From positions 1 to 64,000 of the IMG/VR virus record IMGVR_UViG_3300036826_000357: 64,000 bases of DNA; one strand, written 5' to 3'. Positions 17,271 through 59,294 of the stretch are shown piece by piece. Both the position numbers and the translations under genes were made by a program. This DNA is from a virus. The notes beneath the pieces were generated by a model. It was not told the origin of the DNA. It saw nothing but the letters and a program-made list of their open reading frames with translations, and made no database searches. Numbering within the stretch: position 1 is the first letter of the stretch; each line of letters begins with the position of its first letter.

Positions 17271-17599
17271 TCAGGCAGCGTCTTCTTCCCCGCCAGTGCG
17301 GGTATCATCCTTGTCCAGCCAGCAATAGACTTCCCCTTGCGGTCCCTGCTGCGTCCGGACTCGATAGCCCTGGACACATTCCGGATGCCGCAACACGAAT
17401 CCGTTAATGGACGACATGACGCCACGCGGCGTCCGTCCACCCAGATTCGTCAGCCGTGCGCGCTTCCCCGTCCGGATGCACTGCTCGATCAACGCGCGCC
17501 ATTGCATCGAGATTGCCGTCATCCGTCGTGGCACTTCCGCCGCCTCCACCAGATCAAACTCCACCGGGGCCTTGCCCGAATGCTTCGCCATCCGCCTCA
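17271..17599 (-). CDS. Hypothetical protein
   Basis: Overlaps recA end; start uncertain. Confidence 0.45.
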
Positions 17600-18816
17600 T
17601 CCTCCTCAGAAAGAGTGTGCGGCACGCTTTGCGGAGCGTGCGCACGTTCAACAATCGCGAGTTGCGCCTTAGCAAAATCATCGCGGTTTTGCAACCAGGT
17701 TTCAGTTATTTCGGCTAACGTACGAAATTCCTTATCGCCGGCATACCAACCTGGCTTTTCGAGGCTCTTCCGAACGTACCCCGTCCGTTTGGCGAAGCCC
17801 ATCACGGCCCGAAAATCGTCTGATTCCCCCTTCCGCACCGCCTCGTAATCTTTCAGCGCCAACGTAAACTCGCCCTCCATCCCCGGTGGAGAGACCTTAC
17901 TGTACTGCACTTTAAAGCCCATGGTCACTGCTTGTGGCGGTCGGGATTTGTCGCTTCCCTCCCAATGAATCTCTTTCTGCCGCATGCGAATGACCACGCT
18001 GCTCCCGAAGAGTTGACCACGCCCTCCCGGCTCGACCATCGGAATACTATGACCGAAGCCTGTTACCTTCTCCCGAAGTTGATTAATCAGGAGCACAGTC
18101 GGCATGCGGCCTTGTCGGCGTCCTTCTTGTACTGCCGACACGACTTTCCGCATCATCTTGTTGACTAGTCTCGCCTGGAGCCCCTGCTGCCAATTCATCG
18201 CCGTATCTTCGATTTCGGTAGTCGGCGTCATCTGCGCGATCGAATCGAGAACAACAAACCCGACTTCGTTCGTACGCAAAACGGCATCGATGATGTCGAT
18301 TGCCTGCTCCGCAAATTCCGGGCGTCCCAAGTAGAAGCGATTCTCGTCTAAATCCACGCCCATCACTTCTGCCCATGCAGGATCGAACACCCCTTCGACA
18401 TCGATCCACACCACCATGGATTGCTCCGGCTGCGCACACTGGCACTGTTCCCGCCAGAGACAGCATCGAGAGCACAAGCGCTGATAGTTGGCACTCGCTT
18501 TGAGCGCCCCGGTCGATTTCCCACACCCCTTCTGCCCGGAGAGCAAGGAAATGCGCGCGGCAGGTAACCCACCGACCAGCGCGTAATCGAGTGGGAAGAT
18601 CCCGAACGGGATACGCGGAATCGCCAGCGACACCATCCCACGCGCCGGTACCAAGACGCCGGCCCCGTACTGCTTCTCCAGGTGCTGCCGAACCACCGCG
18701 AATGGAACAACCTCGGTGGGAGCGAGCTTCTTCTTCCCCTTCGGCTTCTTGTCCTCCGGAGGCGTGGGAAGTGGCGATTCGCCTATGAAGTCCGACGACG
18801 GCTCATCCGGCCACAT
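17554..18816 (-). CDS. recA: RecA-like recombinase
   Basis: LDYALVGGLP, Walker A GQKGCGKST, WIDVEG, VVLDSIA, GLQARLV, LINQLREKV, PGG. Confidence 0.92.
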   Translation of the reverse strand: MWPDEPSSDFIGESPLPTPPEDKKPKGKKKLAPTEVVPFAVVRQHLEKQYGAGVLVPARGMVSLAIPRIPFGIFPLDYALVGGLPAARISLLSGQKGCGKSTGALKASANYQRLCSRCCLWREQCQCAQPEQSMVVWIDVEGVFDPAWAEVMGVDLDENRFYLGRPEFAEQAIDIIDAVLRTNEVGFVVLDSIAQMTPTTEIEDTAMNWQQGLQARLVNKMMRKVVSAVQEGRRQGRMPTVLLINQLREKVTGFGHSIPMVEPGGRGQLFGSSVVIRMRQKEIHWEGSDKSRPPQAVTMGFKVQYSKVSPPGMEGEFTLALKDYEAVRKGESDDFRAVMGFAKRTGYVRKSLEKPGWYAGDKEFRTLAEITETWLQNRDDFAKAQLAIVERAHAPQSVPHTLSEEDEADGEAFGQGPGGV

Positions 18817-19186
18817 GCTCCCTCCGCCGCTTCGCTTCCTCCGCCAACTCCGCTTGTTCCTTGATACAGCGATCCCCAACCCAGCGAGCGACGGCTTCGG
18901 CCGTCTGATCTACCTCAGCAACGTAACACGGCATCGAGAGAGAGACTTCGACCCGCGCCGAGTTGTAGTCACCCATGTTGATGGTGACTCCGTATTGATA
19001 CTTCACATAGGCAGGAGAGCCAATGAACGGGCGAATGGGAATCTTCCCAGACTCCGATTCCGGCTCTCGGTACGTAAACGATCGTTCGACATACCAGCGA
19101 CCGTCACGTTGCTCGACTCCCGCCGCCGTCATGAGATCCACGACGAGCACGGCCGATACCTGTGCCTCGCTCCCATCCATTCCCAT
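18803..19186 (-). CDS. Conserved phage hypothetical protein
   Basis: GVTINMGDYNSARVEVSLSMPC motif; start uncertain. Confidence 0.6.
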   Translation of the reverse strand: MGMDGSEAQVSAVLVVDLMTAAGVEQRDGRWYVERSFTYREPESESGKIPIRPFIGSPAYVKYQYGVTINMGDYNSARVEVSLSMPCYVAEVDQTAEAVARWVGDRCIKEQAELAEEAKRRREHVAG

Positions 19187-34201: not shown

Positions 34202-35107
34202 TTACTCCGTCAGCGTGATGCCTGCCTTCCCCGCCTTCACACTGGCCTCGAACCGAGCCTGCCAGTCGAGAGTCGACCGCTCGACTCGCTTGAGTGCCCG
34301 CAGCGCTTCCTCGAACAGGAGCCGCCCGATGCCCTCATTCAGTTCTCCGTCCTCCACCGCTTCGATCACCTTCTTGAAGCGCTGGACGTTCTTCTGCGTC
34401 AGGACGCGGCACTGCATCGCCGTATCCTTCTTCCAGAACGTGAACTTCGTTTCGGCAGACTTGTCTGTCTTCTTGCCACGAAGCTCGTCACGGAGTGTCT
34501 GCTCCTTGACGGTGAACTCCCGCGCCGCGCGCGGCACGGTGTACTTGTGATCCGTCACCGCCAGGACGGCCTTGCGGAGCCGAACCTTTGCCTCCTTCGA
34601 GGCGATGTCGTTCAGGTACCGGCGCACGATCGGACGCGCCAGAATCATCGATCCGAACAGATCCTTCTGATCGAGCAGGTCCATGATGCGCTTCGGGGTC
34701 AGCCCCTGCGCCTGGAGGAGCCGGATAGTGTGCTCGAAATCGTCGCTGGTGGGCGGCAGTGCCCCACCCGTGTTGGCGCGGAGCGCGTACACGATCATGT
34801 CTTCGGTGGAATCGAATTCCTTGACGATGCACTCGGTCTCGATGTACTGCCCCTTGTGCAGATCGGCGAGCACTTCCAGCCCGCCCTTGCGGTGCCGGCC
34901 ATCCACGGTCTCGAAGTGAATTCCGTCCTCGTCCTCGACTTCTGCAACTTCGATCGGCGGGACGGGGATCCCGTTCTCGTACAGTTCTGCGAACATCTGC
35001 ATGCGGTCGTCGTCAGGCTTCACCCGCACGTAGAATGTCGTACGCAGATCAGCGACCTTGACGGTAACATGCCGATCCGCAGACCGCTTCTTGGCTGCTT
35101 CGGCCAT
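34202..35107 (-). CDS. ParB/Srx-like N-domain protein with HTH
   Basis: R...PPIEV...VDGRHR...ALRAN; C-terminal VPRAAREFTVKEQTLRD HTH; GAGGA RBS; TTGACA-16-TACTCT upstream. Confidence 0.75.
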   Translation of the reverse strand: MAEAAKKRSADRHVTVKVADLRTTFYVRVKPDDDRMQMFAELYENGIPVPPIEVAEVEDEDGIHFETVDGRHRKGGLEVLADLHKGQYIETECIVKEFDSTEDMIVYALRANTGGALPPTSDDFEHTIRLLQAQGLTPKRIMDLLDQKDLFGSMILARPIVRRYLNDIASKEAKVRLRKAVLAVTDHKYTVPRAAREFTVKEQTLRDELRGKKTDKSAETKFTFWKKDTAMQCRVLTQKNVQRFKKVIEAVEDGELNEGIGRLLFEEALRALKRVERSTLDWQARFEASVKAGKAGITLTE

Positions 35108-35169
35108 AAATCTATCCTCTACTTTCTGTCCCATTTGGTTTTTGGTTTTTGGGGACGGGTCCAGAGTAG

Positions 35170-35388
35170 TCACCCTTTCCCTTTTGTCAATCCCCCTGGG
35201 ATGGACACTCCGGTGGGATCGAGCATCGGACTGTAGCCGTTGTCGATGCGAATGCTCATTCCACCCATGACAAGCGCATGGTTCTTGCCCATCACCTGAG
35301 CAAGATACTGCTGAGACCATCCACGGGCCTCAAGCTCCTCCCGAATCAACTGACCCGGCGGGTACGCTTCAACTTCGAGAATCCCCAT
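35170..35388 (-). CDS. HigA-like XRE HTH protein, short/truncated
   Basis: PPGQLIREELEARGWSQQYLAQVMG. Confidence 0.6.
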   Translation of the reverse strand: MGILEVEAYPPGQLIREELEARGWSQQYLAQVMGKNHALVMGGMSIRIDNGYSPMLDPTGVSIPGGLTKGKG

Positions 35389-36997: not shown

Positions 36998-37381
36998 CTA
37001 GGGACTGTACTCACAGGCGATATCAAGAAACTCGTCTTCATCCGTTTCAAGTAAGAGCTTCAGCGCCAGCATGTTGTCTCCAGCGGGTGGATGTCGCCGC
37101 ACGGCGATCCCGTAATACTGATCGGGTACCCGCGTGTGCGGATGCAACCGTGCAACGACTCCACTCCACCAGATGTTGTAGAGATTCCCGTGTTGCGATC
37201 GGATGGTGACGTACATGACACGCTCGTACTGTCGTGCTTGCCGTGGCGTCAGATAGCTCAGGAGCAATCGCTCCGCGCGAGCTTCGGCTTCGGATCGAGG
37301 CATCAGTGCGATACGCTTCTCGATGGCGGAATCCGGGAAGAGCCACTGTCGGAGCCAGCGTCGAAGCCGCCACAGCACCAT
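36998..37381 (-). CDS. Conserved hypothetical protein, partner paralog B
   Basis: LLLSYLTPRQ...PAGDNMLALKLLLETDEDEFLDIA. Confidence 0.75.
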   Translation of the reverse strand: MVLWRLRRWLRQWLFPDSAIEKRIALMPRSEAEARAERLLLSYLTPRQARQYERVMYVTIRSQHGNLYNIWWSGVVARLHPHTRVPDQYYGIAVRRHPPAGDNMLALKLLLETDEDEFLDIACEYSP

Positions 37382-37383
37382 GG

Positions 37384-37854
37384 TCAGATCTTCACCCCCA
37401 TATATCGTGCCGTCGCGAAAAACGCGGGCTCGTTCGTCTCCAGCAGTAACTTCACTGCCAGCATGCGATCCCCGTACGGGGGCGCTCCATCAGGATGGAT
37501 ACAGTACCGCACGCGCTGCGGCTGTTTCCCCTTGACCGGCTTCAGATGCTCCGTCCACGTATGCCGGACGCGGAACTTCCCACCCCGCGAGCCGGTGACT
37601 GCGAATTCCCCGTGCGCTTTGAGTGACCGCTTCTGTGCCGGCGTCAGATAGGACACCAGTAGCTGCCATGCGCGATCCGACTCCGCCGACAGTTTGGCCT
37701 GGTACTCTTGCCACCACGCTTCATTGACCGGTTGATAATAGGTGCGTGGCGCGGCGATCAGCCGGTCCTGCTCGACGGTGATGGTGAAGTCAATGAACGG
37801 ATCCCGGTCGAATCGGAACTCCAGCACACCGTCACCAGTTCGGATTCGCGCCAT
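37384..37854 (-). CDS. Conserved hypothetical protein, partner paralog A
   Basis: LLVSYLTPAQ...YCIHP...PYGDRMLAVKLLLETNEPAFFATA. Confidence 0.75.
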   Translation of the reverse strand: MARIRTGDGVLEFRFDRDPFIDFTITVEQDRLIAAPRTYYQPVNEAWWQEYQAKLSAESDRAWQLLVSYLTPAQKRSLKAHGEFAVTGSRGGKFRVRHTWTEHLKPVKGKQPQRVRYCIHPDGAPPYGDRMLAVKLLLETNEPAFFATARYMGVKI

Positions 37855-38133
37855 TCACCCGCCAACGAACGGCCGCGAGAACAGAATCCGCTTCGCCGTG
37901 GGATCGAACTCGCGGATCTGATCCGGATGCTGACCCTGCTCGTCCGTCTCGAACGCCAGATGCTGCGCCTTCAGCATCGCGTCGAATAACTCGCCGGCCA
38001 CCCGGACACTCTCGGCGTCACCTTCCTGCCAGGACAGGCGCGCGTCCCCGCCGATCCACTCGACTTCGGGAAACTGCGCCACGACGGTGCGAGGGAAGCT
38101 CTGTGCCGTCCCGATAATATTGAACTGTCCCAT
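37855..38133 (-). CDS. Small protein with C-terminal Gly-Gly
   Basis: GAAGGAG RBS; GD...W...IREFDP...ILFSRPFVGG-stop. Confidence 0.75.
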   Translation of the reverse strand: MGQFNIIGTAQSFPRTVVAQFPEVEWIGGDARLSWQEGDAESVRVAGELFDAMLKAQHLAFETDEQGQHPDQIREFDPTAKRILFSRPFVGG

Positions 38134-38301
38134 CAGATCGACTCCTTCACCATGCGGTTCGATGTGATTGACGGAATCCCCTTCCCCCGGCCCGTTTCGG
38201 GGATCCCGTCACTGCTTCGTACACTGAGTGCCAGTTCCAATTGCACGACGCCGTGTGCGGCGCACGAACGCCGGCCGGTCCCCGGGGGTGCACCCATTCC
38301 G

Positions 38302-39970: not shown

Positions 39971-41077
39971 TTAGTCAACGAGTTCCCCGTCGACATCCTC
40001 GGCCTTGCCGAGCGTGCCGTCCACGATCTGACCGGCCATCCGCTCAAGCTCCAGCCGGCGAACCGGCGTGACCGTCTTCGCCTGCGCGATCCAACTCAGC
40101 GCGTTACTCGCGCGCCATGTCGTCTCGCCTTCAGGCAGGTTCACGATGTCCGGCCCGTTGAAGGCATCCTCTGCCTGCCGGTACTCCTCCTTCGAGAGCA
40201 GCGTCTTCAGATGCGCCAGGCCCTTGAACGTGATCCCGGAGTCTGCCGCCTTCTTGATGCGCGCGACGATGCTGTCTCGCCGCTCCTGACTGAAGACCGC
40301 CTTGACGGCATCGAACGTGGCCGACTTGGTGGTCTCATGGTCCAGCCGGTAGGTCTCCGCCGAGAACACGATGTCCTCGGTGAGCTTCCGGCCCAGATGC
40401 ACCTGGCCGAACACGTCCTCGGTGGTCATGCCGTTCAGACACACCAACCGCTCGAAGAACGCGCGGATGCTGTTCTTCCCGTCGCCGAATTCGCTGTTGC
40501 TCCACTCGGCTCCGAACACGCCCCACTCGCCAGGGAGTAGCTCGATCACGTCACTGCCGATGGCGCGCAGCGACACGCGGGTCTCGGTCACGAGCCCACC
40601 GTAGGGCTGGGCACCGACCGCCTGCATCGCGTTGACCACCGCGTCGAGCAGTGGCCGCGAGTCGATGCGGCGGAACTTGTCGGACAGCACGCCGAGCGCC
40701 TGCCCGTTCACGCGCCGAACCAGGTAGCTCGACGGTGAGTGATGATAGGTCTCGTTGAGGATGTGGATGAGGAGTTCACGCTGCCATGCGGCACCGTCGA
40801 AGAGCTTGCCGGCATACCGGCCGTCCACGCCACCCTTCTGGAACACCTGTGTCCGCGCGTGCGGATGCAGCGGCGCAAGGAAATCCTGCGGGCCGCGTAG
40901 CACCAACTCGCGCGTCGTCTCGTCTGCCGTGCCGTACTGCATGGCGCGACCGGCGATGAGGGAGTCCTGAATCATGCGCTGCCCCGTGGCCTCGATCACA
41001 GCCTGCGAATTCCGGAGGCGCTGATCGATGGTCGCACGAAGCTTCGCTTCTGCTTCCCTTCCATTGGTAATGTTCAT
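39971..41077 (-). CDS. DUF932-family protein
   Basis: GVLSDKFRRID...NSEFGDG...ERLVCLNGM...HLG...WRASNALS. Confidence 0.8.
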   Translation of the reverse strand: MNITNGREAEAKLRATIDQRLRNSQAVIEATGQRMIQDSLIAGRAMQYGTADETTRELVLRGPQDFLAPLHPHARTQVFQKGGVDGRYAGKLFDGAAWQRELLIHILNETYHHSPSSYLVRRVNGQALGVLSDKFRRIDSRPLLDAVVNAMQAVGAQPYGGLVTETRVSLRAIGSDVIELLPGEWGVFGAEWSNSEFGDGKNSIRAFFERLVCLNGMTTEDVFGQVHLGRKLTEDIVFSAETYRLDHETTKSATFDAVKAVFSQERRDSIVARIKKAADSGITFKGLAHLKTLLSKEEYRQAEDAFNGPDIVNLPEGETTWRASNALSWIAQAKTVTPVRRLELERMAGQIVDGTLGKAEDVDGELVD

Positions 41078-41369
41078 TGCTTGTCTCTTTCTCTTCTTTC
41101 CGCCCACTCGGGGGCCTGTTTGATGATGTGAATCTGGGTCCGGTTGTGGTCTTTGTCAAGGGTCTGGTCTCGTCTCACTTTCCGCTCCGGGGAGGGTCGC
41201 TCCCCGGAGCTTTCGGTTGTCCGTTACCCGAACAGGAGCCAGTCGATGGCGGGGATCAGTGTCGGGGCCATGCAGGCCATTGCCGCGACGAGCGCGAGCC
41301 CAGCGGCCATCGTGTCACTGAACGCCTTCCCATCCTTCTCCCATGCGGGAGTCTTCGTTGGACGTGCCA

Positions 41370-49575: not shown

Positions 49576-50343
49576 TCACACGTACTCCTCGATCGCGATG
49601 CTGGCATCGAAGGTAACGAGCCCACGCGCGACAGATACATCATCCGTATCGCGTTGCCCGATCACGAACTGCGACGTATCCCCGAGATTGTCGTACCAGA
49701 CCACCGGGGATCCCTTGCCGACATTCACCAGGGTAAACACATCAGTTCTCACCGTGGCATTCTGATAGAGAAACTCCGGGTTACCTGGAGCGCCACGCAA
49801 ATATGGCGGGCCATCCTGATTAATCTCGCCGCCGCCACCCTCGTACGTGATCTTCGTCGCCGCCTGCTGAATGATCCATGTCAGCGGTGCCCCGATCGGA
49901 TCGGTCCACGTCCGCACCGTCACCAGAATCAGAATCGTCCCGATTTCCACGAACGTTGTCGCCCCTAAGCTCTCCGCAGAAATACGCACGTACCGAGCGG
50001 AGAATGCGGTATCCTGCCAGAGCTTTTTGACGTTCGTGCGCTGATCGGTCGGAATGGTAATCAAGCCGAGATTCGTCGGCCAGGTACTATTATCGTTCCC
50101 AGCCTCGATTCGTAACTGCGTCGGTCCAGTCACATCCTGAATCACCACGGCAGCAACTGCCTGTGTCGTCCCCAGATCAAACGTCAGACGCTCCGTATGT
50201 GTGCCGCCGGCAGTGGTGGAACGCCAGACACGTGCCGGCCGCGTTATCAACCCCACATTTGACGCGGGAAACCCTGGCTGTGCCGTCGTTGCCGTAATGA
50301 GCGGGGTCGGAAACGTGGTGGCGACCTTCGGTCCAATGGCCAT
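49576..50343 (-). CDS. Tail protein (discoidin-like)
   Basis: WRS...LTFDLG...ARYVRI; tail module position. Confidence 0.7.
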   Translation of the reverse strand: MAIGPKVATTFPTPLITATTAQPGFPASNVGLITRPARVWRSTTAGGTHTERLTFDLGTTQAVAAVVIQDVTGPTQLRIEAGNDNSTWPTNLGLITIPTDQRTNVKKLWQDTAFSARYVRISAESLGATTFVEIGTILILVTVRTWTDPIGAPLTWIIQQAATKITYEGGGGEINQDGPPYLRGAPGNPEFLYQNATVRTDVFTLVNVGKGSPVVWYDNLGDTSQFVIGQRDTDDVSVARGLVTFDASIAIEEYV

Positions 50344-50345
50344 GG

Positions 50346-53300
50346 CTACGTCACCAGTACCGGGTACGGTCCAAAGGTTCCAATTAGCCGATCTTGAATG
50401 TCGTACATGCGGAATGTGTAGTAGTACGGATTCGGGTCAGTCGCCGGAACCACATCCACCATTGTAAGCAGCGGCAGCGTGTAATCGGAGGGCGTAGTCT
50501 CGGCCAGTAATGCCGGCGTACTCGTGGCTGGTCCCTGCCGCCATATCCGCATCGTTCTGAAGTACCGTGGCAACGGCTCGCGTTGCGTAATCGTCACCTT
50601 CATCTGGGTAATCATCGCAGCGCCGATGGCATCCTGCGTTTTCGGCACCACACCCCAGAACATGTTGCCGACATCATTCACCTGCCACGGACGATTGATG
50701 TACGGATTCTGCGGATAGCTCCAGATGAGGTTGGAATATGTCGCCCCAACTAAGAAAGAGGTTGCATCGATTCCTGAACCTCCACCGACAAGACTGCCGT
50801 ACTGCGCGGCATATCGCTCCGTTCCGGAGCCCGCATTAACCCGCATCCGTGTCAGGAAATCGACATTGGAAATCTCCGCTCCTGAAGCGAGCCCTGCACC
50901 AGCAAATCGCATCTTCACAGCCGCATTCGCATCACCCGCGATGTACGTTGCATCAGCATCGGGCGGATCTTCATCGATACACTCAGGATTCGTGGCTGGT
51001 GGCGGAGGCGTACCACCCGGAATGAACCCATGGTTAAAGACTGGATTCGGTGGCGGATCGATTTCCTGTACCGGATACCAATTCGTGACACGGCCAGGAA
51101 TTATCGTCACTGTGACAGTCAGACCATCCACCCGACTTGTCGCTGCCATATTCCCGAATGCCGTTGCTGGCCCCGGAGGCGCGGACGGATCCGCCGGCAG
51201 TGGCAACGGATCGTACACATAATCCGCTGCCGTGTAGGGTGTGACCGTGACCTGATTCGCCGCCGACACTCGATTCGACCGCCGGACCCGGGCATCGAAT
51301 GCCGTCCCAGACCGGAGTGTTACCTCGATCACTCTCCCCGGGACGATATTCCTTGCCTCGTGTCCCAGCGCTAACTCGATGGTTGCATCATCAGTCTTCC
51401 GGCGCTTCGCCCGATAGCTCCGAATGATATCCGCTGTGACGGGATCGTAGACTAACTGTGTCTGTACTTCCTCGATCTGCTGTCCGACTCCATTGACATC
51501 CCCATCGGCAGAACTGAGCAGGAAGTTGATGACGCGTCCTGTCTCATCCCGCACAGGTTGAAATCTGACCCGTGTCTTGCCGATCGTCTCAGCCAACGAT
51601 GCGCGAGCTATCCCACCGACCTGCGCGATATTCCGCCACGGATCACCAATGGAGAAGGCAGCGTCTGCAATGGAAACTGCCTGGTCGACAGCAGCCGTGA
51701 CCAGTCCCGCCGATGTCAACGAATAGCGCAACCCGCGAAATGTACGGAAGTTGTCCATGACTCCATCGGAGCCATCGATGGTTGCAGCATCGGTAAATGC
51801 TCCGTCACAGCGGAGCCCGTGATTTTCAATGCCGGCCGCATCATCTTCTGCGGTATCCCAACTCGTCGGATCGAGTGCCATCCCGGATACGTCGAGTGCT
51901 TCCCGCAGACACGTCACGAAATTCCGCCGTCCGAGATAGTGTGCACGGCGGTAATACGCGAGGCCGCGTGCCCCACTACTGAATCGGACTGGCCCAAGAT
52001 CACCTTGCGCACCCGCCCCGATGGTCGAACTACCACCAAGAATCATCGGATCGGTCGCTTCTGGATCGATCGAGTCTCGCCCGTACTTCACATATCCCCG
52101 CCCCGATCGAGGCGTAGACTGAATCAAGACGCCATTGATGTAGAGGTCGACAGTCGTTGCACCGACATCGACCCCAATGTGCATCCACGTATTCAAGGTA
52201 ACGTTGGCAGTTTGGAGTGTAAGTGTCAGTGGACTTGCCCACGTCGCTGGATTTGTCGTGATATCGATGGTGAATTTGATCTTGTTCAGATCGTGGAATA
52301 ACTGCCAGCCATCCCGGGGTCCATCGACAATCGCCCCGGTCTCATCCGTCCGCAGCAGGAACCAGACTTCGAGCGAGAACTGATGCAGCGCATACGCATC
52401 CCGCGCTGCTACCGACTCTGCCATCATCGCTCGCAACGCATTGCAGCGGATGGCTCCATTCCCGTACCGAGATATGCCTGCTACCAGATGACTGGTATTC
52501 GCCGTATTCCCAGCCATCGCGATGGCATGATGACCGCCGATGTCATCGTAGAGCCCGCGTTGCCAGTCCCATTCACTGACTACCCGCGCATCCACATCCG
52601 CCATGAGCCGCTGCCCATCGACTACCAACGAACTGACTCCGGCATCCTGCCCGCGAGGATCACGTCCCAGCCGAATAGCCGTCTGATATCTGCCCCCCTG
52701 CAAATACGTTCGCTTGATGACCTGATAATCCCCTGCTCCGAGTGGTAATCCACCTTGCCGAACTGCCTGCACATGCAGGTTCCCATGTAACACCACAAAG
52801 TCGTACAGATCGGCGATATTCGACGGTAACCCGCCGAAGATGATTAACTGCCCACTCCCATCGGTCGAAATGGTAATCGGCGCATTCGTGAATGCTTCAG
52901 ACTCCTTCGCTGCCAACTGAAACGTATCGTCATCCAGCACAATCACCCAATAATCCTTGTCAACCACCAATCCTGTGGGCAGCGTCCCATTCACTGCCAT
53001 CACATGGTACGGTCCATTCCCGGTTTGGAAGCCATGTGCGCGCGAACTGAACGAGTCATTCGTGGCCAGGCCGGTGAATCCAATCCGGATTTCCTTGTTC
53101 TCGTCGTTCCGCGCCCGCGCGTATCTGCCCGGGAGTCCCCGATTCACGCCCCACCCATGCGGTACGACGGAGCCGAGACCACCACTCGGCGATCCGTCAG
53201 CCGGCGCATACGGATGCTCCAGCGAATTAATCACGTAGGCAGGGAATACCTCGTTGACTTTGGCAGGATCGAGTGCCGCACAGAGTAACTGAATGGTCTG

Positions 53301-53792
53301 ATCGTCATGTGCCACAGCCGCAATGCGGCCCACGGCGATGTTCAGTACCGTCGTATCCGTCAGCACATCGTAGGAATGCACGTTGACCAACCAGCCCCGG
53401 ACTTCCGTCGATCCGATCCAGTTCGTGATGTCCGGCGTGGCAGTCTCGATTGCCCGTAGCCGCAGCCGCACCGTGAACTGCTGCTGCTGAAGATTCCCAC
53501 CGAAGGAATCCGGCTCCTCAAGCGTAATGGAAATCGACTCGACTACACGTTTCTCGAAGAGTGCCGGCCCGAATGCCGTGGGATATACGTCCCGCGATGC
53601 AAACCGCAGTGGCGGTAAGGACAAATCCACCGGGAGATTGAGTGTGGTCGAATCCTGGTAGTGAATCTCAACGAGAAAACAGAGACTCGGAGCCGTCAGT
53701 AACGGATTCGCTGCGACGGGAAGTAATCCACCACCGTCCGCAATACCCCAATCGAATTCTCCCCAGCCCGGACCCTCACCCCATCCAGCCAT
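50346..53792 (-). CDS. Tail tip / host-specificity protein with LamG domain
   Basis: 1148 aa; HGFQTG...LPTGL...YWV; FSLEVWF...WMHI...LYING. Confidence 0.8.
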   Translation of the reverse strand: MAGWGEGPGWGEFDWGIADGGGLLPVAANPLLTAPSLCFLVEIHYQDSTTLNLPVDLSLPPLRFASRDVYPTAFGPALFEKRVVESISITLEEPDSFGGNLQQQQFTVRLRLRAIETATPDITNWIGSTEVRGWLVNVHSYDVLTDTTVLNIAVGRIAAVAHDDQTIQLLCAALDPAKVNEVFPAYVINSLEHPYAPADGSPSGGLGSVVPHGWGVNRGLPGRYARARNDENKEIRIGFTGLATNDSFSSRAHGFQTGNGPYHVMAVNGTLPTGLVVDKDYWVIVLDDDTFQLAAKESEAFTNAPITISTDGSGQLIIFGGLPSNIADLYDFVVLHGNLHVQAVRQGGLPLGAGDYQVIKRTYLQGGRYQTAIRLGRDPRGQDAGVSSLVVDGQRLMADVDARVVSEWDWQRGLYDDIGGHHAIAMAGNTANTSHLVAGISRYGNGAIRCNALRAMMAESVAARDAYALHQFSLEVWFLLRTDETGAIVDGPRDGWQLFHDLNKIKFTIDITTNPATWASPLTLTLQTANVTLNTWMHIGVDVGATTVDLYINGVLIQSTPRSGRGYVKYGRDSIDPEATDPMILGGSSTIGAGAQGDLGPVRFSSGARGLAYYRRAHYLGRRNFVTCLREALDVSGMALDPTSWDTAEDDAAGIENHGLRCDGAFTDAATIDGSDGVMDNFRTFRGLRYSLTSAGLVTAAVDQAVSIADAAFSIGDPWRNIAQVGGIARASLAETIGKTRVRFQPVRDETGRVINFLLSSADGDVNGVGQQIEEVQTQLVYDPVTADIIRSYRAKRRKTDDATIELALGHEARNIVPGRVIEVTLRSGTAFDARVRRSNRVSAANQVTVTPYTAADYVYDPLPLPADPSAPPGPATAFGNMAATSRVDGLTVTVTIIPGRVTNWYPVQEIDPPPNPVFNHGFIPGGTPPPPATNPECIDEDPPDADATYIAGDANAAVKMRFAGAGLASGAEISNVDFLTRMRVNAGSGTERYAAQYGSLVGGGSGIDATSFLVGATYSNLIWSYPQNPYINRPWQVNDVGNMFWGVVPKTQDAIGAAMITQMKVTITQREPLPRYFRTMRIWRQGPATSTPALLAETTPSDYTLPLLTMVDVVPATDPNPYYYTFRMYDIQDRLIGTFGPYPVLVT

Positions 53793-53795
53793 AGA

Positions 53796-54122
53796 TCACG
53801 GATTCTTCGGTGGGCATTGCGATAGCAGGATTTTACACGATCCCAGATCGATCTGCGGATCACGCGGACGTAACTTCTTCCGTTTCTCGGTAAGCTCATT
53901 CAGCTTTGTGTTACAGGGGTCGAGGAGCGTACAGGGTCCGGGACGCCCGGCACACATCTGAAGCGCCGCTTGGACACACTCGTCAACACGAATCTGCTCC
54001 AGAAGGATCTGCTCCTCCAATTCCAGACCCCAGACCTGCGCACCACAGACATCGTAGACACGCTGGCACACACCCTCATTAAACGTCGCGGCCAGGAGAA
54101 TCCCTGCGAGAATCATCATCAC
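53796..54122 (-). CDS. Small secreted Cys-rich protein
   Basis: Hydrophobic N-terminus, multiple Cys. Confidence 0.55.
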   Translation of the reverse strand: MMMILAGILLAATFNEGVCQRVYDVCGAQVWGLELEEQILLEQIRVDECVQAALQMCAGRPGPCTLLDPCNTKLNELTEKRKKLRPRDPQIDLGSCKILLSQCPPKNP

Positions 54123-57100
54123 ATCACCGTGTCAAAGCTAACATAGAGAGCACACGAAGCAGCAGTAGCAGCCAACGATGTACCGACCACGGAGACCTGT
54201 TTCATGGTAAAGCGATCCCCAAGTGCAAATGCAATCGGTGCACTCGCTGAACCCGCTGCTGGTGTACACTGCTGAACACCCGCAGTCATCTGACAGAGCA
54301 TGGTTGTATCAGAACTGCCACCTGCACTGCCTCCAGTACCCTTCCGCACAGTAAACGTGCGCGTGGACGTACCACCGGGAGTATCACTCGCGGTGCAGGT
54401 CATCTTCCAAATAGTTCCTGCTCCAACAATCACACTCCGGAAGTTGTTCTCCGTCGCATTGTTGTCGTTTCCCCACAACGAGCTAAACAACGTCTGCGCC
54501 GTGGTCAGCAGAATCGGGAAGTCAGTCCGCGCGATCGAGCCATTCCGCAACGAGATCGATCCGAACGATCCCTGGTAGTTGGCAATCGAGCCCACAGATG
54601 CTGGTGTCGGCCACCGATAAAAGCCATTGTCTGCGACATCAACGTTAACGACATTCGCTGTACCCGCAGTCGGGAACTTGATTGCCGTTGAATTCGTGCT
54701 GTTCGATCCATCGAAAATATTGCTGACGATCTGGCTGCCAGTAATCACCATATTGCCAAGAGATTGTGGCCCAACCATGTCAACTCCAATGATACTGTCT
54801 ACAGTACCACCAGGAAACACGGTATTCAGCGCAATATTCAGATTCGTGTGCGGGCTGGTAGCGCCGTAGTCAGACAAGCGGAAAAACGCAGTCGGCGTCC
54901 GAGCCAAGCAGCTACCAGCAGTACAGCAATATTTGCCCGCCTCAGATCCAGTCTGACAACAGGTGATAGCACCACCAGGGCAACCACCTAATGTGCCGGT
55001 ACTACACGTCGCACCACCATTACACGTAGACGTGGCCGTCTCACATAATTGTCCCGCCGGGGTCGTACCACACTGCTTCACAGGCTGCTGCGACGGCATG
55101 AACACCACATTCTTTGCGTACGTGTTATGCGTCGTCCCACAACCACCACCAGTACATCCCGCATGACCAATCCACGCGAATGCCGGCTCTGGTACACACT
55201 TGAAGGTCACCGAGCAGGTACCACAATCCGCGTCGCTATTGCACTGATTCCCACGGTTTGGAACAGCGCAGGATGGATCACATGTCGTCGTCGGCCGCAC
55301 GGAATTACTTGAGTTACAATAGTTCCCATCTACGAAGACACCTGCACCACCGAGATTGAAGCAGGCTCCTGCCTGCGACACAATACGATTCGCAACGTAC
55401 TGTGTATTATTCAATGATCCACTCGGCGCGTTTTCAGCCGTGATGCCACGCCACCCACCTTGAATATGATTCAGCCCAACACGATTCTGCGATCCCGCTG
55501 AGCCCAGCTTTATACCGATCCCATGAGCAGCCGGTAATTGAGTCCCCTGCGAAAACCCTATCCTATTATTGGAAATCAACGCATTCGCCGTATCATGATT
55601 GCTGATTCCGATCTGGTTACCAATCACACCATTATCCTTGATCGTGTTATCAGCGATGAGAACATCAGTTCCGGTGCTCTCGATGCCTATTCCATTCCCA
55701 CCAAGCTCTTTGATCGTGTTACTGACAATGTGCGAATTCACGGCGGTCGAATCGATCCCCTTCGCATAAGACTGCAAGCTATTACTCCCCAGCTTATTGG
55801 CAATCACTCCTGCATCGTCACCAGTCAGCGAAATCCCCGTGCATCCAGTCCCAAGATTCAGCGCCTGCGATTTAGCGACCTGTCCGTATGTACTGATAAC
55901 GAAGCCACAGGCAGCCGTCCCAGGCCCATTGAGAGATGGAGGCCACACCGTCGACTCATCAATACGTGTCTGCGCAGCAGCATTGAATGAGAACGACTTC
56001 CCACGAGCGTACGTACGAATCAGCTGAGAGTCAGACCCGACCTTCATACCGTAAAACACATTCGTGGTCGGCTGCGTGTTGTTCTTGTTGGCTGCTGCGA
56101 ACGCATTGTTCGCAGCACCGTAACAGCACGTTCCACCATTCAACCCTGCCGACAGACACCGAGAATCTGTCGGTGTCGCGAATGGTGACGTACAGTCCGT
56201 CAGTTCCCGCGCTGCATTCACATTGACTAGTGTCGACTGATTTCCCACACTAAGTGAGAAGCCCGAAGAACTGTTCGGCGTGACGAAATGATCGTAGATG
56301 CTGACATTCGTCAGCTTCGCATTCGTGGTTGATGTCAAATCCAGCGGGATGATATTCCCCGGTCCCGATGGCGAGAGCGGAGCACCAGTACACGATCCAC
56401 CACCCGTCGTGCAATTCATCTTCGACAGATCGCAGGTACCCGATATACAGTCACCATTCACATCACATCGTGCTCCTGGCAATGTCGACCCCGTAGAACA
56501 TTCCTGCCGGCACGGCTTCCCAGGATTCGAGCCACCCACACAGCGCTGGAACGGATCGGCCTGAGCCGCCCAGATCGAGCAGTTCTCAATGAAAATGTCG
56601 CTCGATGCTCCTCCACTATCCTTCAGCATCGTGTAGGTCTGTCCCGCAGTCGGTGCGAAACACGTTGTTGCCGTACACGCAGCACCTGCTCCTGCTCCGA
56701 AACTGCTCACACACGTTCCAGAGCCAGGGCAATCTGCGTTCGTATTACATGTCGCACCACCGAACGGAGCGAAGGCACTCGCACTCGCCCCGAATGTACC
56801 CGTCGAACAATACTGCTGCTGCGCGAAGAAGCCGGCACTCTGATCTGCACACACAATGTGCACGTTGTTCGGGATGAGAATGGACGCTGCTCCTGCACCA
56901 GGAGACTTCAACCCAAGCTTGCAGCCACCCGGTATGTAGATAGTCGCTCCAGTCGACCCCAGCGCGTTCAGGGCTGCCTGCACTCCAGCCGTGGAATCTG
57001 TCAGGCCGGAACAATCAACTCCAGGCGTTGCCGTGATACTGGTCGTAGAAATGGTATCCCACTGCAATACATCGCCGGTATGCCAGACAAGTACATCACC

Positions 57101-58360
57101 ATTGATCGGGACATCGGATGGCAACTGATACGTCCGATTGGCTGTGAGACTGGCAGTCGCCGGAGCCTTCAACCCGACAAAGTTCGAGTTATCGGTATCC
57201 CGCCAGCGAAACTCCCCACCACCCTGAACAGTCGGTGTGGAGCCACTTGAAAAGGTCACTCCACCACTGCCACCAACAGCAATAGCATCCGTCGTCCCAG
57301 TGCTATCACGGATGACCACGTTGTCCCCGACGAGAAACCGAGCAATACCACCCTCATCATGGATCGAACAGGTCGAACTGACACTGCCATCACCATTGCA
57401 CCGGAACCGCGTTGCGCCGTCGTTATCACGGATAACGGTATCGCCACTGTTGTTCACTGAAAACCGCGTTGCAGCTCCTCCATTAGTAATCACGCGGAAC
57501 TGTCCAGTACCGGGTGCTAACTGAACGTCGAAGAGACCGTTGGTAGCAGAATTAATGCGGATCGACGCCAAGGCGAAATTCAATCCCGTGCTCTGCGAGA
57601 CGGTAAATTCATCGTTGTTGTTCGTATCGTTGCCAACTGACCATACGTTGTCACCGGCAAAACGAATCTCTGCATTCACCGTTGCCGGCGTTGCCGATGT
57701 CACTATCAGCGGATTGGAGACTCCACCACCAGTTCCACACGGCTGCCAGGCAAACGTCGTCCCGGTCGCCTCATACGTTAGACAGTAGCCATCGACCTGT
57801 CCCGCCGACTTGATCGCATTCGGCGTCACGAGGTCGTTGGCCAGACTGCATGTACCGCCGATCACACCCAGATCGGAAATCGTGCACGTCGCATTGTCGA
57901 TAACGTTCCCCGTCGTCCCGTTGAACCTCGCAATCTGATTGTCAACATACGTCCCCGCTAGACTCTGCACATCAGCAGCAGAATTCCCGAAACAGCCAAC
58001 TGTCGTCCAAACCTGGCTGTCATTGATGTACGTCAAACACGTTGTTCCCGGCGTTCCCGTCCCTGCCGTGCACGCAGTCGTCGTGCAGTCAGTGACAATG
58101 TAGACCTTCGACAGCGTCACACTCGATGCAGTCGGCCGGTTCACAAACAGACCTGCTTGGAACCGACGCGACTCGTCCTGATTCGCCCAGTTCCAGTAAT
58201 ACTGCGGATACGATGCTGCCGGTACGCCAACACCGACCTTCGGAATGCGTAGAATGTCGGTAAACGACACCGTGCCAGGACTGGGATCCGGGTCCGCTCG
58301 CGCGTACCCAACCACCAGCACCATCACCAGCAGGATAAGCCCCCTAAATCGGGTCCACAT
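54119..58360 (-). CDS. Tail spike/fibre-like protein, pectin-lyase-like beta-helix, Cys-rich, with signal peptide
   Basis: MWTRFRGLILLVMVLVVGYARA-D; DSTAGVQAALN...IYIPGG; I.xN repeats; C..G..C...DC repeats. Confidence 0.75.
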   Translation of the reverse strand: MWTRFRGLILLVMVLVVGYARADPDPSPGTVSFTDILRIPKVGVGVPAASYPQYYWNWANQDESRRFQAGLFVNRPTASSVTLSKVYIVTDCTTTACTAGTGTPGTTCLTYINDSQVWTTVGCFGNSAADVQSLAGTYVDNQIARFNGTTGNVIDNATCTISDLGVIGGTCSLANDLVTPNAIKSAGQVDGYCLTYEATGTTFAWQPCGTGGGVSNPLIVTSATPATVNAEIRFAGDNVWSVGNDTNNNDEFTVSQSTGLNFALASIRINSATNGLFDVQLAPGTGQFRVITNGGAATRFSVNNSGDTVIRDNDGATRFRCNGDGSVSSTCSIHDEGGIARFLVGDNVVIRDSTGTTDAIAVGGSGGVTFSSGSTPTVQGGGEFRWRDTDNSNFVGLKAPATASLTANRTYQLPSDVPINGDVLVWHTGDVLQWDTISTTSITATPGVDCSGLTDSTAGVQAALNALGSTGATIYIPGGCKLGLKSPGAGAASILIPNNVHIVCADQSAGFFAQQQYCSTGTFGASASAFAPFGGATCNTNADCPGSGTCVSSFGAGAGAACTATTCFAPTAGQTYTMLKDSGGASSDIFIENCSIWAAQADPFQRCVGGSNPGKPCRQECSTGSTLPGARCDVNGDCISGTCDLSKMNCTTGGGSCTGAPLSPSGPGNIIPLDLTSTTNAKLTNVSIYDHFVTPNSSSGFSLSVGNQSTLVNVNAARELTDCTSPFATPTDSRCLSAGLNGGTCCYGAANNAFAAANKNNTQPTTNVFYGMKVGSDSQLIRTYARGKSFSFNAAAQTRIDESTVWPPSLNGPGTAACGFVISTYGQVAKSQALNLGTGCTGISLTGDDAGVIANKLGSNSLQSYAKGIDSTAVNSHIVSNTIKELGGNGIGIESTGTDVLIADNTIKDNGVIGNQIGISNHDTANALISNNRIGFSQGTQLPAAHGIGIKLGSAGSQNRVGLNHIQGGWRGITAENAPSGSLNNTQYVANRIVSQAGACFNLGGAGVFVDGNYCNSSNSVRPTTTCDPSCAVPNRGNQCNSDADCGTCSVTFKCVPEPAFAWIGHAGCTGGGCGTTHNTYAKNVVFMPSQQPVKQCGTTPAGQLCETATSTCNGGATCSTGTLGGCPGGAITCCQTGSEAGKYCCTAGSCLARTPTAFFRLSDYGATSPHTNLNIALNTVFPGGTVDSIIGVDMVGPQSLGNMVITGSQIVSNIFDGSNSTNSTAIKFPTAGTANVVNVDVADNGFYRWPTPASVGSIANYQGSFGSISLRNGSIARTDFPILLTTAQTLFSSLWGNDNNATENNFRSVIVGAGTIWKMTCTASDTPGGTSTRTFTVRKGTGGSAGGSSDTTMLCQMTAGVQQCTPAAGSASAPIAFALGDRFTMKQVSVVGTSLAATAASCALYVSFDTVM

Positions 58361-59294
58361 AACCCCTCGCATACAATGCCACAGTGTTTCCACCGCCCGT
58401 CCCGTTCCACTGCGCCCGAAATATCTGTGTTGAATCCACTTCTATATCGATTACATACGACACCAATATGGGCGAGTTTGTGTGGATCATCCCCCAGGTA
58501 CCAGTACCAGCCGTTCCATTCAGTACGTTACACTGCTGGCCAGCATTCGCATTCGCAATCGGCACCACAAAAATCGTGGCTATGCGCGATGTCGGCGGAA
58601 TGTACTTCTTGACGTCGACATTTTGCACCGTCGAGACAGTATTCGTTACATTAACGCTGTAGCTTGAATTCGCATCTGTACCGTCCATTCGATAATACAC
58701 ATGGTCATCTTCCTGAATGAACTGAAGGAAGTTGCTCGACGCATTGTTCCGAACGGCTCCAACTCGGACCCATTTCGTGTACCCCGTCACTGTCGCATGC
58801 GTGAGTACCAACCCCGCCCGTGTGTTCTGCTTCGAGAGTAGGAAGCCGATGTTCCCGGCCGCATTCACACCGACCCAGACATAGTACCAAAAATTGGCAT
58901 CCTCTGGATCGGCACCGAGATTATCAAACCCATTCAATCCATTGACCGTAATATCAACTGATCCACTAACAGCCTGTACGATCGTACCTTCGATCCCGAG
59001 TAGGTCTGCCGTAATGTCGAGCTTACTGTTCGGCGCAGCATTGTTATTGACAATCCGCAGTGCCCGGCGTCCCACACGAGAATTCAGTATCAACGCACTC
59101 TGTGCCGCCTGAATCCGTGCACCGACATCGGCATACACAGTTCCATCCACCGACGAAATGTGCGGATTCGCCCCCAACGTGGCGAGTGCTGCGAACAACT
59201 CCTCGACAACCTGTAGCCAATCTGCCGGCGTCACCTGCGCATCCTTCAATGCCGCAGAAGCAGTCGGAACAATCGGTGGATATTGCGCCGCCAC
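58344..59294 (-). CDS. Tail fibre / minor tail protein
   Basis: NGLNGFD...ANFWYYVW...GYTK..RVGAVRNN...FLQFIQ. Confidence 0.7.
   Translation of the reverse strand: MAAQYPPIVPTASAALKDAQVTPADWLQVVEELFAALATLGANPHISSVDGTVYADVGARIQAAQSALILNSRVGRRALRIVNNNAAPNSKLDITADLLGIEGTIVQAVSGSVDITVNGLNGFDNLGADPEDANFWYYVWVGVNAAGNIGFLLSKQNTRAGLVLTHATVTGYTKWVRVGAVRNNASSNFLQFIQEDDHVYYRMDGTDANSSYSVNVTNTVSTVQNVDVKKYIPPTSRIATIFVVPIANANAGQQCNVLNGTAGTGTWGMIHTNSPILVSYVIDIEVDSTQIFRAQWNGTGGGNTVALYARGYVDPI

Follow-up and report, generated by a model that had tools for sequence, protein, structure and literature searches.

Introduction

In bacteria and phages, conjugation of the ubiquitin type was connected with immunity only recently, as in the Bil and type II CBASS systems. 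To our knowledge, all well-studied bacterial and phage forms of this conjugation need an E1 enzyme, with the exception of E2-only CBASS. In the MoaD–MoaE system, the gene of a small Gly-Gly protein lies directly upstream of the gene of a partner of approximately 150 residues, which takes up the tail of the small protein. Here, we examined the first 64 kb (64,000 nucleotides; hereafter, the window) of the 85,016-base IMG/VR virus record IMGVR_UViG_3300036826_000357, which has approximately 60% G+C and a CheckV completeness of 69%. At 36998–38133, the window carries three minus-strand genes that encode a 92-residue protein ending in a free Gly-Gly and two paralogous partner proteins, A and B. 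We found that this Gly-Gly terminus is conserved, that the small gene is linked to the partner gene in viruses and bacteria, and that the tail of the small protein is predicted to dock at a near-invariant Cys of the partner. The family is large and unnamed, and the evidence on its fold is weak; we tentatively propose that the two proteins form an E1-less ubiquitin-like/E2-like pair.

In working logic, the closest described system is, by analogy, E2-only (short type II) CBASS. A stand-alone CBASS E2 is reported to cleave after the conserved C-terminal Gly of the CD-NTase and to link this Gly to its own Cys and then to Lys (bioRxiv 10.1101/2022.05.25.493364; PMC12948482), and this chemistry reportedly requires the Cys and a nearby His and no E1 (bioRxiv 10.1101/2022.05.25.493364). 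Our locus resembles that system in two respects: a candidate E2-type protein that stands alone, with no E1 or JAB in the record, and a partner protein whose Gly-ending tail is inserted into the E2 pocket near the Cys, an insertion that is predicted in our case. In contrast, the Gly-ending protein here is a stand-alone protein of approximately 70 residues rather than a CD-NTase, and conservation extends to no third gene, be it an effector or another. The E2-type domain is smaller (approximately 100 residues), its Cys lies two residues ahead of a His-Pro, and the His is present at the site in only 113 of the 150 relatives compared. Most copies here are found in phages, and the domain shows no profile similarity to Prok-E2_A or Prok-E2_B.

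In gene content, the closest systems are the bacterial operons that combine genes for ubiquitin-like (Ubl), E1, E2 and JAB proteins. Operon type 6d (Iyer, Burroughs and Aravind 2006, PMC1779556), Bil and Bub likewise place a small protein with a C-terminal Gly beside a Cys-bearing E2-type protein. PMC1779556 also describes E2-like proteins in which a His on the C-terminal side of the Cys is conserved, as well as RWD-like E2 domains that lack the Cys and were proposed to bind Ubl proteins; the two groups parallel our paralogs A and B. In contrast to these operons, the module described here is a two-gene cassette with no E1 or JAB gene in the record or beside the pair and no match to the Pfam Prok-E2 or ThiS families.

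Results and Discussion

Organization of the cassette

The three open reading frames (ORFs) stand back to back on the minus strand, from 38133 to 36998 in the ORF list. Gene 1 (37855..38133) encodes a small alpha/beta protein of 92 residues, in which the free C-terminal Gly-Gly is followed by the stop codon. A Shine-Dalgarno sequence, AAGGAG, was read from the minus strand at 38142..38147, 8 nt ahead of the ATG, and this placement supports the start of the 92-residue frame. The protein comprises an N-terminal extension of approximately 24 residues and a conserved core of approximately 68 residues. Gene 2 (37384..37854, minus strand) encodes paralog A (156 residues), the canonical partner, whose C-terminal domain (approximately residues 45–153) contains Cys118-x-His120-Pro121 and Asp129. 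The gap between genes 1 and 2 is 0 nt, as the TGA stop codon of gene 1 (37855–37857) abuts the ATG of paralog A. Gene 3 (36998..37381, minus strand) encodes paralog B (127 residues) and follows after 2 nt, with the TGA of paralog A at 37384–37386 and the ATG of paralog B at 37379–37381.

The two paralogs are 36% identical over 97 residues (BLASTP, E 3e-11). Both sequence motifs quoted in a first-pass annotation of the window are common to A and B; the Asp is kept in paralog B, and the Cys-x-His-Pro of paralog A is replaced there by Gly-x-Ala-Val. The description given in that annotation, of a 92-residue Gly-Gly-ending protein followed at gaps of 0 and 2 nt by two paralogs, was confirmed from the ORFs, the sequence and BLASTP, and the alignment agreed with it on the shared motifs and on the Cys that precedes the Gly-Asp motif in A and is lost in B. 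Genes 1–3 constitute a single translationally coupled cassette of a widespread two-gene module, the second gene of which is duplicated here.

Conservation of the Gly-Gly protein and its partner

A profile search of 5.8 billion proteins found 172 relatives of the small protein. Among the 120 listed, 109 end exactly in Gly-Gly, three in Ala-Gly and two in Gln-Gly, while the other six carry Gly-Gly and 1–10 further residues and resemble ubiquitin-type precursors. The terminal Gly was invariant in a 15-sequence alignment, and the Gly-ending members are 73–124 residues long. The Gly-Gly terminus is far from chance and is the most conserved feature of the small protein; this check, which the first-pass annotation had proposed, came out in favor of its idea. 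None of the 120 listed relatives has a Pfam domain in the precomputed annotation, the small protein itself matched no ThiS, ubiquitin or other Pfam family at E ≤ 1, and a PDB profile search with it returned nothing relevant.

For the partner domain, HMMER with a profile of A and B found 5241 relatives at E ≤ 0.001 among 1.84 billion representatives, 610 of them at E ≤ 1e-10. These relatives have in common a C-terminal domain of approximately 100 residues behind variable N-termini that are often rich in Thr, Ser and Trp. Residue conservation was counted in an alignment of the best 150 of the 5241: the Asp is kept in all 150, the Gln of the first helix in 149 and the Cys in 148, and the only Cys-less partners among the 150 are paralog B and P0016.

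The three proteins of the window matched no Pfam family at E ≤ 1 and no PHROG at E ≤ 0.1, and PADLOC gave no match for ten proteins of the two families, including these three. Word-index homolog searches with single proteins returned only the queries, and no relative was confirmed by IMG/VR pattern scans with the two-paralog alignment or with the Gly-Gly protein alone. Sequence and profile searches of the PDB were likewise without a meaningful match, and the ESM Atlas returned unnamed clusters only. As far as sequence comparison reaches, the partner and the Gly-Gly protein thus represent a large family pair that matches no Pfam, NCBIfam, PHROG or PADLOC model.

Many partner N-termini are rich in Thr, Ser and evenly spaced Trp, followed by a Glu/Arg-rich helix ahead of the domain. 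The bacterial copies (140–147 residues) have no Thr/Ser/Trp-rich N-terminal region.

Linkage and distribution of the pair

Linkage was assessed at loci from IMG/VR and from a genome collection. An IMG/VR pattern scan with a domain-only alignment provided 24 viral loci with one partner gene each, including near-duplicates (L004/5/6, L007/8, L011/12, L013/15, L019/20 and L023/24). By the small-protein profile, a relative of the small protein lies upstream of the partner or is fused to it at 21 of the 24 loci: 19 have a separate same-strand ORF directly upstream, and two (L019 and L020) are in-frame fusions, in which the open frame runs through the Gly-Gly into the partner. No small-protein relative was found at L022 or L026, and L006 is cut by the contig end. 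At all 11 bacterial loci, the small gene lies upstream and its product ends in Gly-Gly. The gene linkage that the first-pass annotation had proposed to check is upheld by both sets, and its mention of similar gene pairs in other phages was borne out by the viral loci. When neighboring ORFs were clustered, no third conserved gene was found at the viral or bacterial loci, and only the pair is shared.

The fusions at L019 (1487–4288) and the near-identical L020, on IMG/VR contigs of 435 kb and 231 kb, continue after the Gly-Gly with Leu-Met-Val-Met, and a Thr/Ser/Val-rich linker precedes the partner domain. In the listed ORF, approximately 560 residues at the start look spurious, as though the frame had been extended upstream through G+C-rich DNA.

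The pair was present in 5 of 401 sampled Pseudomonadota genomes, in 1–3 copies each, where it sits among common chromosomal genes, such as those for FliM, an SLT transglycosylase and flavin oxidoreductases. Because the pair also stands alone and in multiple copies in bacterial chromosomes, its role is probably in phage–host conflict. One such role would be counter-defense, with the partner-held Gly-Gly protein serving as a decoy that mimics the Ubl tag of host systems (Bil, type II CBASS Cap2/Cap3) and absorbs or misdirects the host E1/E2; this is a biological role and is compatible with a covalent or a non-covalent mechanism. The module is phage-borne, belongs to a leftward block of early-type genes and brings no E1, all of which suit a decoy, and phage proteins are known targets of host Ubl systems (10.1101/2023.09.04.556158, PMC10097602). 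However, bacterial chromosomes carry this pair by itself, outside any phage context, and it shows no sequence similarity to PADLOC defense components, and nothing ties the module to hosts that carry Bil or CBASS, co-occurrence with host defenses not having been searched. We consider the decoy role improbable.

The carrier Pseudomonadota genomes (G329, G302, G178, G062 and G006) are large, at 6–8.8 Mb, and contain up to three copies at unrelated sites.

A tandem partner copy, as in the window, was seen at none of the 24 IMG/VR viral loci; a second instance was found in Virus Rctr197k. When 50,697 phage records were searched with tblastn, three partner proteins had no hit, and the hits of two Gly-Gly proteins were confined to the uncultured records KX853510.1 and LR756511.1. 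These two are the only deposited phage records in which we encountered the pair, and no cultured phage with it was found in this search. Foldseek against BFVD retrieved two unnamed viral proteins of 268 and 245 residues, which are the lengths of two annotated coding sequences of Virus Rctr197k, and the family profiles match ORFs there. In Virus Rctr197k (L033, KX853510.1 113646–121846), the small-protein relative ends in Pro-Gly, the small gene is followed by two partner paralogs approximately 1.2 kb apart, and the annotation places a CRISPR repeat region 1.5–3 kb upstream, where a transposase-like gene is also located. Agrobacterium phage Atu_ph07, a weak row in the BFVD Foldseek search, was dropped because neither family profile matched it.

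Predicted complex and proposed mechanism

The complex of the small protein with residues 40–156 of paralog A was modelled with our own alignments in three runs, together with three controls. All three runs scored 0.93, while the best control scored 0.00; this score expresses the confidence of the model and is not a measurement. In the calibration of the tool, 58 of 80 solved complexes attained this mark, as did 2 of 110 mismatched pairs, figures that are a rough guide here, as our own alignments were used. The runs share at least 97% of their contacts, and the pLDDT of the partner is at least 93. On the partner side, the interface consists of the first helix (54–71), residues 118–126 (the Cys-x-His-Pro loop), residues 128–129 (Gly-Asp) and the long helix (132–150); on the side of the small protein, it consists of residues 5–12, 27–30, 61–72 and 84 and the whole tail (86–92). 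The Gly-Gly tail is predicted to dock on the Cys-x-His-Pro loop, the Asp and the long helix of paralog A, which is where the first-pass annotation had suggested looking for it.

Of the 35 predicted interface positions, 19 have the same residue in paralogs A and B, compared with 14 of the 69 positions elsewhere in the domain. Judging from the model, paralog B probably still binds the small protein despite the loss of the Cys, His and Pro, and it is probably a non-catalytic binder. The first-pass annotation had offered an active and an inactive paralog as one possibility. This idea fits a paralog B that lacks the Cys, as only two of the 150 partners do, and yet keeps more than half of the predicted interface.

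The strictly terminal Gly-Gly (109 of 120), the near-invariant Cys (148 of 150) and the predicted position of the tail on the Cys loop argue for chemistry at the terminal carboxyl. The explanation we favor, to which we give somewhat less than an even chance, is an E1-less ubiquitin-like/E2-like pair with a covalent step. The small protein and its partner would form a tight 1:1 complex, with the Gly-Gly tail running past the loop of the Cys-x-His-Pro, the Asp and also the long helix. The partner Cys would then capture the terminal Gly as a thioester, and the captured Gly may afterwards be passed to a Lys. Loading would proceed without a dedicated E1, parallel to that of the stand-alone E2 of E2-only CBASS. 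Paralog B would act as a non-catalytic binder or regulator, as UEV/RWD domains relate to E2. If the covalent chemistry is true, the pair would show how little machinery protein tagging needs, represent a new class of phage protein modifiers and bear on the origin of E2 enzymes. A bolder form of this proposal, which we regard as unlikely, is that the pair is the smallest known ubiquitin-type tagging system, with a tag of approximately 70 residues and an E2-like domain of approximately 100 residues, no E1 and no ATP-dependent activation; that it is carried by thousands of environmental phages and some bacteria and marks host or rival proteins; and that the Cys-less paralog is a built-in, UEV-like regulator.

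The interface and gene order can also be read as those of a purely non-covalent heterodimer, in which the Gly-Gly tail fills the Cys pocket of the partner as a plug or pseudo-substrate and the small protein is an inhibitor/antitoxin or an obligate subunit, as in type II toxin–antitoxin systems or the MoaD tail in MoaE. The small upstream gene is coupled to a larger downstream gene, and the predicted interface is tight. The cassette of two genes stands alone, with 1–3 copies amid ordinary flanks in 5 of 401 Pseudomonadota genomes and with many further copies in phages, and the record holds no E1. In addition, binding of Ubl moieties was proposed in PMC1779556 for inactive RWD-like E2 domains. 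However, a near-invariant single Cys beside a strictly terminal Gly-Gly is what thioester chemistry, and not plugging, predicts, and the Gly-Gly-extended variants and the in-frame fusion imply cleavage after the Gly-Gly. PADLOC, as noted above, matched none of the ten proteins of the two families. We consider the heterodimer a possible but doubtful explanation; even as nothing more than a tight heterodimer, the pair would be among the larger uncharacterized phage gene pairs.

The two models named for such a heterodimer fit in part. Type II toxin–antitoxin systems resemble the pair in their coupled genes with the small one first, their multiple copies in chromosomes and their many phage loci. 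In contrast, no DNA-binding antitoxin domain and no known toxin fold was found here above chance with Pfam, NCBIfam, PHROGs or PADLOC. The gene layout and the predicted tail insertion recall MoaD–MoaE; the difference is that no molybdopterin genes lie near the pair. Identity with MoaD/MoaE was rejected, as there was no match to the ThiS/MoaD or MoaE family and MoaE was not among the listed fold rows of paralog A. As an observation on distribution, the chromosomal occurrence of the pair (L037–L050) recalls that of toxin–antitoxin cassettes.

Predicted folds

The AlphaFold2 (AF2) model of the small protein, built from 120 sequences, has a pLDDT of 78 and the element order strand-strand-helix-strand-strand-strand, followed by a six-residue tail; in the protein of this phage, AF2 places an additional strand ahead of the core elements. 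The predicted order of elements is compatible with a beta-grasp fold. In a Foldseek search of the PDB, the best E was 0.29, and the SAMP1, MoaD, PB1 and FERM rows had TM values of 0.3–0.46.

The model of paralog A, built from 150 sequences, has a pLDDT of 83, with most values above 90 across the domain. Helices 45–68 and 72–81 are followed by a meander of four strands, then by the Cys-x-His-Pro loop and finally by a long helix (127–148). An exhaustive VIA comparison placed Ubc9 (4y1l_C) on top, with Z 5.2, a root-mean-square deviation of 2.9 and 84 aligned residues, and four RWD domains came next, with Z 4.2–5.1 (2daw, 5.1; 2yz0, 4.9; 7e2k, 4.7). At least 16 of the 50 rows were titled E2, RWD or UEV, including UBE2F, UBE2O, UBE2E1, Ubc13-Mms2, Tsg101 and Vps23, and the CBASS CdnG–E2 complex (8hsb_B) was among the rows with Z 3.2. 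Further rows (FANCL, kinetochore and RQC components) presumably also hold RWD-type domains. As these Z values lie below the trust level of the tool, the enrichment in E2, RWD and UEV rows is a lead rather than a demonstration, and the predicted partner domain weakly resembles the UBC/RWD/UEV (E2) superfold.

RWD and UEV domains were the best structural matches after Ubc9, and paralog B is Cys-less as they are. The His-Pro-x-x-x-Pro-Pro of paralog A resembles what we take to be the Tyr-Pro-x-x-x-Pro motif of RWD domains. The families differ in that the Cys is kept here in nearly all partners, no sequence-profile link was found and the Z values are low.

Points against the covalent proposal

Covalent chemistry is made doubtful above all by the missing E1, and further findings also weigh against the proposal that we favor. 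No ThiF-type E1 (PF00899) and no Prok-JAB was found in the 85-kb record, which is 69% complete. Among five related viral records (75–200 kb), only one had a ThiF match, approximately 7 kb from the module. In addition, the Gly-Gly is free in most members, which therefore offer no leaving group, and protease-type loading would have no obvious energy source. What we observed is the three genes, their paralogy and linkage, and a conserved Gly-Gly, Cys and Asp; the folds and the complex are predicted, and any covalent chemistry and the biological role are what we infer.

With regard to the folds, a beta-grasp fold of the small protein is not established from its model. At the top of the VIA rows (Z 5–6; best, 5.8–5.9) stood a chain of a pre-60S ribosome, a designed protein and pre-60S particles that contain Nmd3. 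Ras-binding and ubiquitin-like domains reached only Z 3.4–4.2. Neither Foldseek nor VIA established the beta-grasp fold that the first-pass annotation had proposed to look for. For paralog A, Foldseek against the PDB gave no match at E ≤ 0.001, and the best VIA Z of 5.2 is lower than the best Z of 7 to 8 that is typical of the tool for models without a clear match. Sixty partner relatives matched no Pfam (E ≤ 0.01), NCBIfam or PHROG family above chance.

Profile comparison with hhalign gave the partner a probability of 0.7 against Prok-E2_B and 0.2 against Prok-E2_A, with profiles built from seven (Prok-E2_B) and six (Prok-E2_A) genomic sequences, while the control comparison of Prok-E2_A with Prok-E2_B gave 75.8. 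Membership of the partner in Prok-E2_A or Prok-E2_B was rejected on these two values. The comparison of the Gly-Gly family with Prok-E2_B, intended as a negative control, gave a probability of 24.5 (P 0.0008), above the values of the partner against either E2 family; this is probably noise of the seven-sequence profile, thin profiles being noisy.

The geometry of the putative active site also departs from that of canonical E2 enzymes. In these, the catalytic Cys lies approximately ten residues after a His-Pro-Asn motif. The partner Cys ends the fourth strand and precedes the His-Pro by two residues, and the invariant Asp129 is near the canonical position. The partner His, kept in 113 of the 150 relatives, is missing in 37.

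These findings bear on two further claims of the first-pass annotation. Its statement that no E1, E2 or JAB is recognizable holds at the level of Pfam and PHROG and has to be amended for E2, as the predicted fold of the paralogs is weakly E2/RWD-like. Its proposal of a modifier/ligase pair gains from the conserved Gly-Gly, the linkage and the predicted docking, and loses from the missing E1 and the missing profile link to Prok-E2_A/B. The six Gly-Gly-extended members and the natural fusion would fit protease-type loading.

The distribution of ThiF-type enzymes bears on a sulfur-carrier pair as well, in which a host MoeB/ThiF-type enzyme would thiocarboxylate the Gly-Gly and the partner Cys would transfer the sulfur, for example in thio-modification of nucleic acids or cofactors. 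In favor of it, the Gly-Gly end is free and conserved, every control genome contains a suitable enzyme of the ThiF type, and one related jumbo-phage record has a ThiF-like ORF approximately 7 kb from the module. However, neither a ThiS/MoaD or MoaE family nor a sulfurtransferase family was matched, conserved neighbors of the pair include no thio-modification genes, and the ThiF match was confined to one of the five related records. We regard this pair function as very unlikely. The ThiF ORF itself (L027, G003:C1:127243-127656; 215 aa, E 5.7e-21) belongs to a 200-kb jumbo-phage record that also holds L014.

Since the pair fails the sequence-membership tests of all the families compared, we have filed it in none of them. 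Full-text searches of the literature, with supplementary files outside their scope, found no description of a phage Gly-Gly protein with such a partner.

Genomic surroundings

The cassette lies inside a long leftward block of small genes. It is flanked on one side by a ParB-like gene (34202-35320, minus strand; phrog_1033) and on the other by a gene of unknown function that matches phrog_1362 (39971-41107, minus strand), and two promoter-like sites are found upstream of it at approximately 41.7–41.96 kb. A RecA-like gene (Pfam RecA, E 3e-36) is located at 17554-18879 on the minus strand. A run of very large minus-strand genes at 49576-63998, with ORFs of 1148, 1424 and more than 1500 residues, probably encodes tail or fiber proteins; one of these very large genes contains a Laminin_G_3 domain, and a neighboring gene contains an F5/8 type C domain.

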